From the NCBI RefSeq assembly GCF_024700885.2, contig NZ_CP117016.1: DNA of 64,000 bases, one strand, 5' to 3'. The notes under the pieces were generated by a model. That model saw only the letters and a list, made by a program, of their open reading frames with translations, was not told the origin of the DNA and did no database searches. Shown here in pieces: positions 28,743 to 30,480 of the stretch (the first letter of the stretch is position 1; every line of letters begins with the position of its first letter). Position numbers and translations under genes: made by a program. Origin of the DNA: Escherichia coli. GTDB lineage: Bacteria > Pseudomonadota > Gammaproteobacteria > Enterobacterales > Enterobacteriaceae.

Positions 28743-28821
28743 GCCAGAACAGAGGTGGTTTCTGGACGTATTCCTTCCTGAAGTCGGTTTTCTGGCGTTG
28801 TTGTTAAGTCTCGGGGTCAAC

Positions 28822-30480
28822 GTGTTGACCCCGTTGACGGCCTTCGCGGGAGTGCGGTTGCGCTGGCCTGCCATGATGCGACTCACTTGCATCGGCATTC
28901 TGGCGCAGTTCGCGCTCCTGCTGCTCGCCTTTGGCGTACTGACGTATTGTTTTCTCATCAGCGATTTCTCGGTCATTTATGTCGCGCAACATAGCTACAG
29001 CCTGCTGTCGTGGGAACTCAAACTGGCGGCGGTATGGGGTGGTCATGAAGGTTCGCTGTTGCTTTGGGTGCTGTTGCTTTCCGCCTGGAGCGCGCTGTTT
29101 GCCTGGCATTATCGGCAGCAAACCGATCCGCTATTTCCGCTGACGCTAGCCGTTTTATCTCTCATGCTCGCCGCACTGCTACTGTTTGTAGTGCTGTGGT
29201 CCGATCCCTTCGTGCGGATATTTCCACCAGCAATCGAAGGCCGCGATCTCAATCCGATGCTGCAACATCCCGGTCTTATCTTCCATCCGCCGCTGCTTTA
29301 TCTCGGCTATGGCGGTTTGATGGTGGCGGCGAGCGTGGCGCTGGGGAGTTTACTGCGCGGCGAGTTTGATGGTGCCAGCGCCCGAATTTGCTGGCGCTGG
29401 GCACTACCTGGCTGGAGCGCATTAACGGCGGGGATCATCCTCGGTTCCTGGTGGGCCTATTGCGAACTGGGCTGGGGCGGCTGGTGGTTCTGGGATCCGG
29501 TGGAAAACGCCTCTTTACTACCCTGGCTTTCTGCCACTGCACTGCTGCACAGTTTGTCCCTGACACGCCAGCGGGGGATTTTCCGTCACTGGTCGCTGCT
29601 GCTGGCAATAGTTACTCTGATGTTGTCGCTGTTGGGCACGTTGATTGTCCGTTCTGGCATTCTGGTTTCGGTTCATGCGTTCGCGCTGGATAACGTCCGC
29701 GCCGTGCCGTTGTTCAGCCTGTTTGCACTGATTAGCCTTGCGTCTCTGGCTCTGTATGGCTGGCGAGCGCGGGACGGTGGCCCGGCGGTGCATTTTTCGG
29801 GGTTATCGCGGGAAATGTTAATCCTCGCTACGCTGTTGCTGTTTTGCGCAGTGCTACTGATCGTGCTGGTGGGAACGCTTTATCCGATGATTTACGGCCT
29901 GCTGGGCTGGGGACGCCTCTCCGTTGGCGCGCCGTATTTTAACCGCGCGACGTTACCGTTTGGTCTGTTGATGCTGGTGGTGATTGTGCTGGCGACGTTT
30001 GTCTCTGGCAAACGCGCGCAGCTTCCGGCGCTGGTAGCTCATGCGGGCGTGCTGTTATTTGCCGCGGGGATCGTGGTCTCCAGCGTCAGCCGTCAGGAGA
30101 TCAGCCTGAATTTACAGCCGGGTCAGCAGGTGACGCTGGCAAGATACACCTTCCGTTTTGAGCGCCTCGATCTGCAAGCCAAAGGCAATTACACCAGCGA
30201 AAAAGCGATAGTGGCACTGTTTGACCATCAGCAACGTATTGGTGAACTGACGCCGGAGCGGCGTTTTTATGAAGCACGCCGTCAGCAAATGATGGAACCG
30301 TCAATTCGCTGGAACGGCATCCATGACTGGTATGCGGTCATGGGGGAGAAAACTGGGCCGGATCGTTACGCTTTTCGTTTGTATGTACAAAGCGGTGTGC
30401 GCTGGATCTGGGGGGGAGGATTGTTGATGATTGCGGGCGCATTGTTAAGCGGATGGCGGGGGAGGAAGCGCGATGCATAA
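28822..30480 (+). CDS. nrfE: Haem lyase NrfE (CcmF-like)
   Basis: ORF track 28798 (TTG)..30480; GTG at 28822 gives the remembered 552 aa. WGGWWFWD motif present. Start uncertain. Confidence 0.85.
   Translation: MLTPLTAFAGVRLRWPAMMRLTCIGILAQFALLLLAFGVLTYCFLISDFSVIYVAQHSYSLLSWELKLAAVWGGHEGSLLLWVLLLSAWSALFAWHYRQQTDPLFPLTLAVLSLMLAALLLFVVLWSDPFVRIFPPAIEGRDLNPMLQHPGLIFHPPLLYLGYGGLMVAASVALGSLLRGEFDGASARICWRWALPGWSALTAGIILGSWWAYCELGWGGWWFWDPVENASLLPWLSATALLHSLSLTRQRGIFRHWSLLLAIVTLMLSLLGTLIVRSGILVSVHAFALDNVRAVPLFSLFALISLASLALYGWRARDGGPAVHFSGLSREMLILATLLLFCAVLLIVLVGTLYPMIYGLLGWGRLSVGAPYFNRATLPFGLLMLVVIVLATFVSGKRAQLPALVAHAGVLLFAAGIVVSSVSRQEISLNLQPGQQVTLARYTFRFERLDLQAKGNYTSEKAIVALFDHQQRIGELTPERRFYEARRQQMMEPSIRWNGIHDWYAVMGEKTGPDRYAFRLYVQSGVRWIWGGGLLMIAGALLSGWRGRKRDA

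Follow-up and report, generated by a model that had tools for sequence, protein, structure and literature searches.

A CTG codon as the probable start of nrfE in Escherichia coli

The nrfD-nrfE junction

Translation of nrfE in Escherichia coli most likely begins at the CTG codon at position 28762, as indicated by comparative, profile and structural-model evidence. The codon belongs to the nrfD-nrfE junction of the nrfABCDEFG operon on the E. coli chromosome, which was analysed within a stretch of 64,000 nucleotides (the window). In this operon, nrfA to nrfD were annotated upstream of nrfE, and nrfF and nrfG downstream of it. The CTG is in frame, lies outside the interval that had initially been flagged and had not been considered there. 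Features of the junction are collected in Table 1.

The original prediction described an ambiguous non-ATG start for nrfE, with a frame opening at TTG 28798 and with GTG 28822 as the codon giving a protein of 552 aa. The start is indeed non-ATG and inconsistently annotated, but both of these codons are probably wrong. TTG 28798 is the first ATG, GTG or TTG codon in frame (ORF 28798..30480, 560 aa); the frame itself, however, is already open from 28732, being preceded by an in-frame TAA (28729-28731). Upstream of the TTG it reads ...LDVFLPEVGFLA, with the translation R-W-F-L-D-V-F-L-P-E-V-G-F-L-A. The lack of an ATG near the 5' end was correctly noted, the first one in frame being found at 28873, and GTG 28822, eight codons past the TTG, does give 552 aa and equals the start of K-12 MG1655 b4074/NP_418498.1.

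A gap of more than 50 bp after nrfD had also been pointed out. With the two codons then considered, this gap amounts to 55 nt (TTG) or 79 nt (GTG), and its contrast with the other junctions of the operon, which overlap by 4 nt (nrfB/C, nrfC/D and nrfF/G) or 8 nt (nrfE/F), is real. A gap of this size is out of character for the nrf operon; with CTG 28762 it shrinks to 19 nt. Fusion of NrfD and NrfE by frameshift or readthrough was excluded by TAA 28729-28731 in the nrfE frame and, in Citrobacter and the Enterobacter sp. described below, by a TGA that follows the nrfD stop and precedes the CTG.

When 601 nt spanning the junction (28500-29100) were used as query, matches were obtained in 5420 of the 5426 complete genomes of E. 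coli, that of strain 2012C-4221 being 100 % identical. Identities of at least 99 % to this stretch were displayed by only 60 of 5421 E. coli records, most records being 95-99 % identical and 12 being 90-95 % identical. Four matches were located on plasmid-labelled records.

Table 1. Features of the nrfD-nrfE junction, in window coordinates
Feature	Position	Strand	Basis
nrfD stop codon TAA	28740..28742	+	sequence, ORF list and annotation
Shine-Dalgarno AGAGGTGG for nrfE; core GAGGTG pairs with 16S CACCUC	28751..28758	+	duplex energy, register
CTG, likeliest nrfE initiation codon (572 aa)	28762..28764	+	PGAP/RefSeq start; conserved in relatives
nrfE CDS as proposed, 572 codons and stop	28762..30480	+	ORF, annotation, profile match
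20 N-terminal codons absent from the K-12 annotation, encoding LDVFLPEVGFLALLLSLGVN, first half of transmembrane helix 1	28762..28821	+	constraint, homologue alignment, AlphaFold
Codons for P6-E7-V8-G9, family N-terminal P/A-E-x-G motif	28777..28788	+	homologue alignment
TTG, first canonical start in frame (560 aa), probably internal Leu13 codon	28798..28800	+	codon unconserved, best pairing -3.4 kcal/mol
Perfect 10+10-nt inverted repeat CGGGGTCAAC-GT-GTTGACCCCG, 2-nt centre, within the nrfE CDS	28812..28833	+	repeat search
GTG, K-12 MG1655 annotated start (552 aa), probably internal Val21 codon	28822..28824	+	codon unconserved, hairpin centre

Coding status of the N-terminal codons

The region upstream of the TTG and GTG codons is protein-coding and under constraint at the protein level. 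Eight close sequences were compared codon by codon (three E. coli, E. albertii, two Citrobacter, one Enterobacter sp. and Salmonella). Variable sites in codons 2-20 were distributed as 6, 1 and 9 over the first, second and third codon positions, and amino-acid changes were fewer there than in codons 21-40.

Related proteins begin with M-x-P-E-x-G-x-F-A-L, to which P6-E7-V8-G9 of the E. coli frame aligned. Among the matches listed for 80 related loci, taken from one-genome-per-species contigs, 59 displayed the exact P-E-x-G motif at the N-terminus, and most of the other 21 displayed A-E-x-G or a similar variant. A canonical start was located one to six (mostly two) codons upstream of the motif in 55 of the 59 loci, while the remaining four were close relatives with CTG only (the scan of the genome collection included at least four close relatives among the matches listed).

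Protein profiles followed the longer form. NCBIfam NF007691 matched the 572-aa form over positions 1-572 of 573 with 1158 bits (cut-off 394), whereas its match to the 552-aa form began at profile position 20 and reached 1129 bits; TIGR03145 displayed the same shift (600 bits for 572 aa, 582 bits for 552 aa). NrfE scored 829 bits against TIGR00353, for which the cut-off is 569. The phmmer alignment to the solved CcmF structure began at residue 46 only and is therefore silent on the N-terminus.

The AlphaFold model of NrfE, built on a 69-sequence alignment, displayed a pLDDT of 87.9 and a helix at residues 5-33 (pLDDT 85-98), and a start at residue 21 would halve this predicted helix. Invariant positions of the alignment included W238-D245 (WGGWWFWD), H175, H263, H305 and H427. 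The invariance of Glu7 and Gly9 in the same alignment is partly by construction, since sequences were chosen with the [PA]E.G motif; the comparison of the 80 loci involved no such choice.

Ribosome-binding site and conservation of the CTG codon

CTG is the commonest codon of E. coli, so that one in-frame CTG per 10-15 codons is unremarkable alone. The codon at 28762 is the only near-cognate start upstream of the P-E-x-G motif in the E. coli nrfE frame, and it is preceded by a Shine-Dalgarno sequence, the end of the GAGG core being 6 nt away. Duplex energies before this CTG ranged from -8.3 to -10.3 kcal/mol (-8.3 in the window pairing calculation), and only 2.4 % of the positions inside nrfE reached -8 kcal/mol or lower. 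The corresponding values were -5.7 kcal/mol for the GTG and -3.4 kcal/mol for the TTG. A 32-mer over the Shine-Dalgarno and the CTG was found unaltered in 5413 of 5426 complete E. coli genomes, and the single near-match in the species displayed a synonymous change in Pro6 (CCT to CCG). The base immediately 5' of this Shine-Dalgarno, position 28750, is C in the window (GAACAGAGG) and A in K-12, BL21(DE3), strain 14EC007 and E. albertii.

No ATG, GTG or TTG was encountered between the upstream in-frame stop and P-E-x-G in E. coli, E. albertii, Citrobacter sp. FP75, C. werkmanii or Enterobacter sp. BIGb0383, and a CTG homologous to 28762 was present in all five. In the two Citrobacter and the Enterobacter sp., only one codon of open frame precedes the CTG (TGA-TTT/TAT-CTG), and the CTG is the sole near-cognate among the six codons preceding P-E-x-G. 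Two more distant metagenomic relatives displayed GTG (L087) and TTG (L088) at the same position. The Shine-Dalgarno core (GAGGTG or AGGTG) was found in identical register before CTG, GTG or TTG in eight out of eight sequences, a comparison that left out the Salmonella contig because it includes too little upstream sequence. The taxon sample on which conservation of the CTG was judged is thin, consisting of Escherichia, two Citrobacter, one Enterobacter sp., one short Salmonella contig and two metagenome contigs.

The Salmonella contig kept the CTG as well, its called start being a TTG located three codons upstream, which overlaps the end of nrfD by 8 nt. A single base separated the nrfD stop from the conserved CTG there (L086:9-20). 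This spacer and the overlapping TTG start indicate that the junction has been remodelled without loss of the CTG. Spacing between nrfD and nrfE thus varied from a 19-nt gap in E. coli to an 8-nt gap in Citrobacter and an 8-nt overlap in Salmonella.

At the other end of the gene, nrfE of C. werkmanii formed a single ORF of 737 codons, apparently fused to nrfF (L008:2501-4711). The Salmonella proteins (P0023 and P0024) carry the NCBI name 'NrfEF'; nrfE and nrfF of E. coli are separate, with an 8-nt overlap.

Downstream TTG and GTG codons

None of the canonical codons at 28798, 28801, 28822 and 28825 was conserved across the relatives, and this bears on every alternative to the CTG. According to the curated K-12 annotation, nrfE starts at GTG 28822 (552 aa), which would leave the conserved upstream sequence untranslated. 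The GTG is preceded at 5 nt by a GGGG run offering weak Shine-Dalgarno pairing (-5.7 kcal/mol) and is located in the loop of a putative hairpin. A 552-aa form would also keep a plausible N-in topology, a truncated product being possible on topology alone. The same position, however, is occupied by CTG in Enterobacter sp. BIGb0383, by GCA in L087 and by AAT in L088; the 19 codons upstream display the substitution pattern of coding sequence and align with the N-terminus of the family; a start at the GTG would drop profile positions 1-19 and cut the predicted helix 5-33; and the GGGG run, which is the only Shine-Dalgarno-like sequence before this codon, sits buried in the stem of the hairpin. Initiation at the GTG is accordingly regarded as very improbable.

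TTG 28798 and TTG 28801 (560 and 559 aa) are the first ATG, GTG or TTG codons of the open frame, and a start at either of them would retain 21 residues of helix 1. Against them, CTG or CTA stands at 28798 in E. albertii, E. coli 14EC007, C. werkmanii, the Enterobacter sp. and Salmonella, and CTG or TTA stands at 28801 in both Citrobacter. Shine-Dalgarno pairing for the TTG start reached only -3.4 kcal/mol, and the near-invariant Glu7 and Gly9 would be lost. A start at these TTG codons appears extremely unlikely.

Dual initiation would combine a full-length NrfE started at CTG 28762 with a form started at the internal TTG or GTG and deprived of part or all of helix 1. With initiation at CUG as weak as it is (10.1101/063800), ribosomes could be captured at the canonical codons further downstream, and weak Shine-Dalgarno-like pairing does precede the GTG. 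The internal codons are nevertheless unconserved, the hairpin would occlude both the GGGG run and TTG 28825, and nothing points to a role for a shorter NrfE, which makes this arrangement unlikely. All three alternatives are thus disfavoured, on account of unconserved codons, poor ribosome-binding sites and conserved residues that would be lost. With CTG 28762 as the start, TTG 28798 and GTG 28822 would be ordinary internal codons (Leu13 and Val21) within transmembrane helix 1.

Palindrome and other elements of the junction

The 22-nt palindrome of Table 1 is centred on the GTG annotated in K-12. As RNA, it would form a hairpin of 9 bp whose loop contains the GUG and whose stem contains the GGGG. 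Distinct repeats of such quality numbered ~9 in the window, vs 0.75 expected in shuffles (about ten times as many), and the 8-bp core of the palindrome was kept in Escherichia, Citrobacter and the Enterobacter sp. Rfam gave no match at E <= 1 in 28400-29100, and the RNA fold of the junction was not unusual (z = -1.33). A consensus scan for an internal promoter gave no promoter-like site.

A possible role for the CTG codon

In the proposed mechanism, the Shine-Dalgarno AGAGGTGG would position the ribosome on CTG 28762, which the initiator tRNA would read as fMet, giving a CcmF-type haem lyase subunit of 572 aa. The nrfD stop lies 19 nt upstream, and ribosomes terminating there may supply this codon or re-initiate on it. 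The 19-nt gap of E. coli, the 8-nt gap of Citrobacter and the 8-nt overlap of Salmonella are consistent with the tight coupling of other junctions in the operon.

CUG initiation amounts to ~1-2 % of that at AUG in reporter assays (10.1101/063800). Since CUG initiates weakly, NrfE, which would be needed only in catalytic amounts, may stay well below the structural subunits NrfA-D. A further step would be to regard the CTG, which persists in Escherichia, Citrobacter and an Enterobacter sp., as a selected device and not as a matter of chance: a start that is weak by design, guided by the Shine-Dalgarno and supplied with ribosomes that terminate on nrfD, would set the NrfE:NrfD ratio at a low value, and the conserved palindrome of 22 nt, located 50 nt downstream, would suppress internal initiation at TTG or GTG or pace early elongation. 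We consider this extended proposal speculative and rather unlikely.

Annotation of nrfE and its consequences

The CTG start of nrfE is already known, in that the NCBI annotation pipeline uses it; the K-12 reference does not. All four of the RefSeq/PGAP records inspected displayed a start equivalent to CTG 28762 (572 aa), and each of the 60 records drawn from across the ranking had an nrfE feature covering 28751-28782. The heme lyase CcmF/NrfE family subunit WP_071556263.1 (572 aa) likewise has a CDS starting at this CTG, by computational annotation. The curated K-12 MG1655 record NP_418498.1, in contrast, keeps a NrfE of 552 aa. Gene callers have placed at least four different N-termini on E. 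coli NrfE in public data, which illustrates the practical cost of a non-canonical start. No initiation-site profiling, N-terminal peptide or other mapping of the nrfE start was found in the searchable literature.

The case of nrfE is one of discrepancy in a reference annotation and probably of a further CTG-initiated gene in E. coli. As the CTG start is present in RefSeq, the gain would lie in confirming it by experiment and in correcting the reference, and not in a discovery. If the CTG start is true, NrfE of the K-12 reference is 20 residues too short, as are probably the resources derived from it, and the absent part comprises a family motif that is nearly invariant as well as half of membrane helix 1. 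Cloning of nrfE from the annotated GTG would then probably express a truncated protein. CTG starts being very rare in E. coli, a case extending across genera would be a useful test for start-codon prediction, and also for the way in which weak starts set subunit ratios within operons.

Comparison with known CTG starts and with CcmF

EcoGene 3.0 (2012) listed hda and yfjD as verified CTG starts of E. coli and yghF' as a predicted one, and did not name nrfE (PMC3531124). Like hda and yfjD, nrfE displays an in-frame CTG preceded by a Shine-Dalgarno and lacks a canonical start upstream of the conserved N-terminal residues; in these genes, annotation first settled on a TTG or GTG further downstream, and the CTG was predicted from sequence conservation. 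Three traits of CTG-initiated genes were encountered in nrfE: absence of a canonical start upstream, conservation of both CTG and Shine-Dalgarno, and coding constraint from the CTG to the first canonical start. The CTG starts of hda and yfjD are experimentally supported (PMC3531124), whereas that of nrfE is a predicted one. Unlike those of hda and yfjD, the nrfE codon lies inside an operon, 19 nt past the upstream stop codon.

NrfE also compares closely with CcmF, its paralogue among system I haem lyases. A Foldseek comparison of the NrfE model with the Thermus thermophilus CcmF structure 6ZMQ (E = 2e-22, TM-score 0.80) indicated the same fold. Both proteins display an N-terminal P-E-x-G (the E. 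coli-type N-terminus of CcmF being MMPEIG) and the WGGWWFWDP (WWD) motif. They differ in how the frame begins: CcmF genes carry an ATG or GTG one to two codons before the N-terminal motif, whereas NrfE of Escherichia and Citrobacter displays five residues before it and a CTG.
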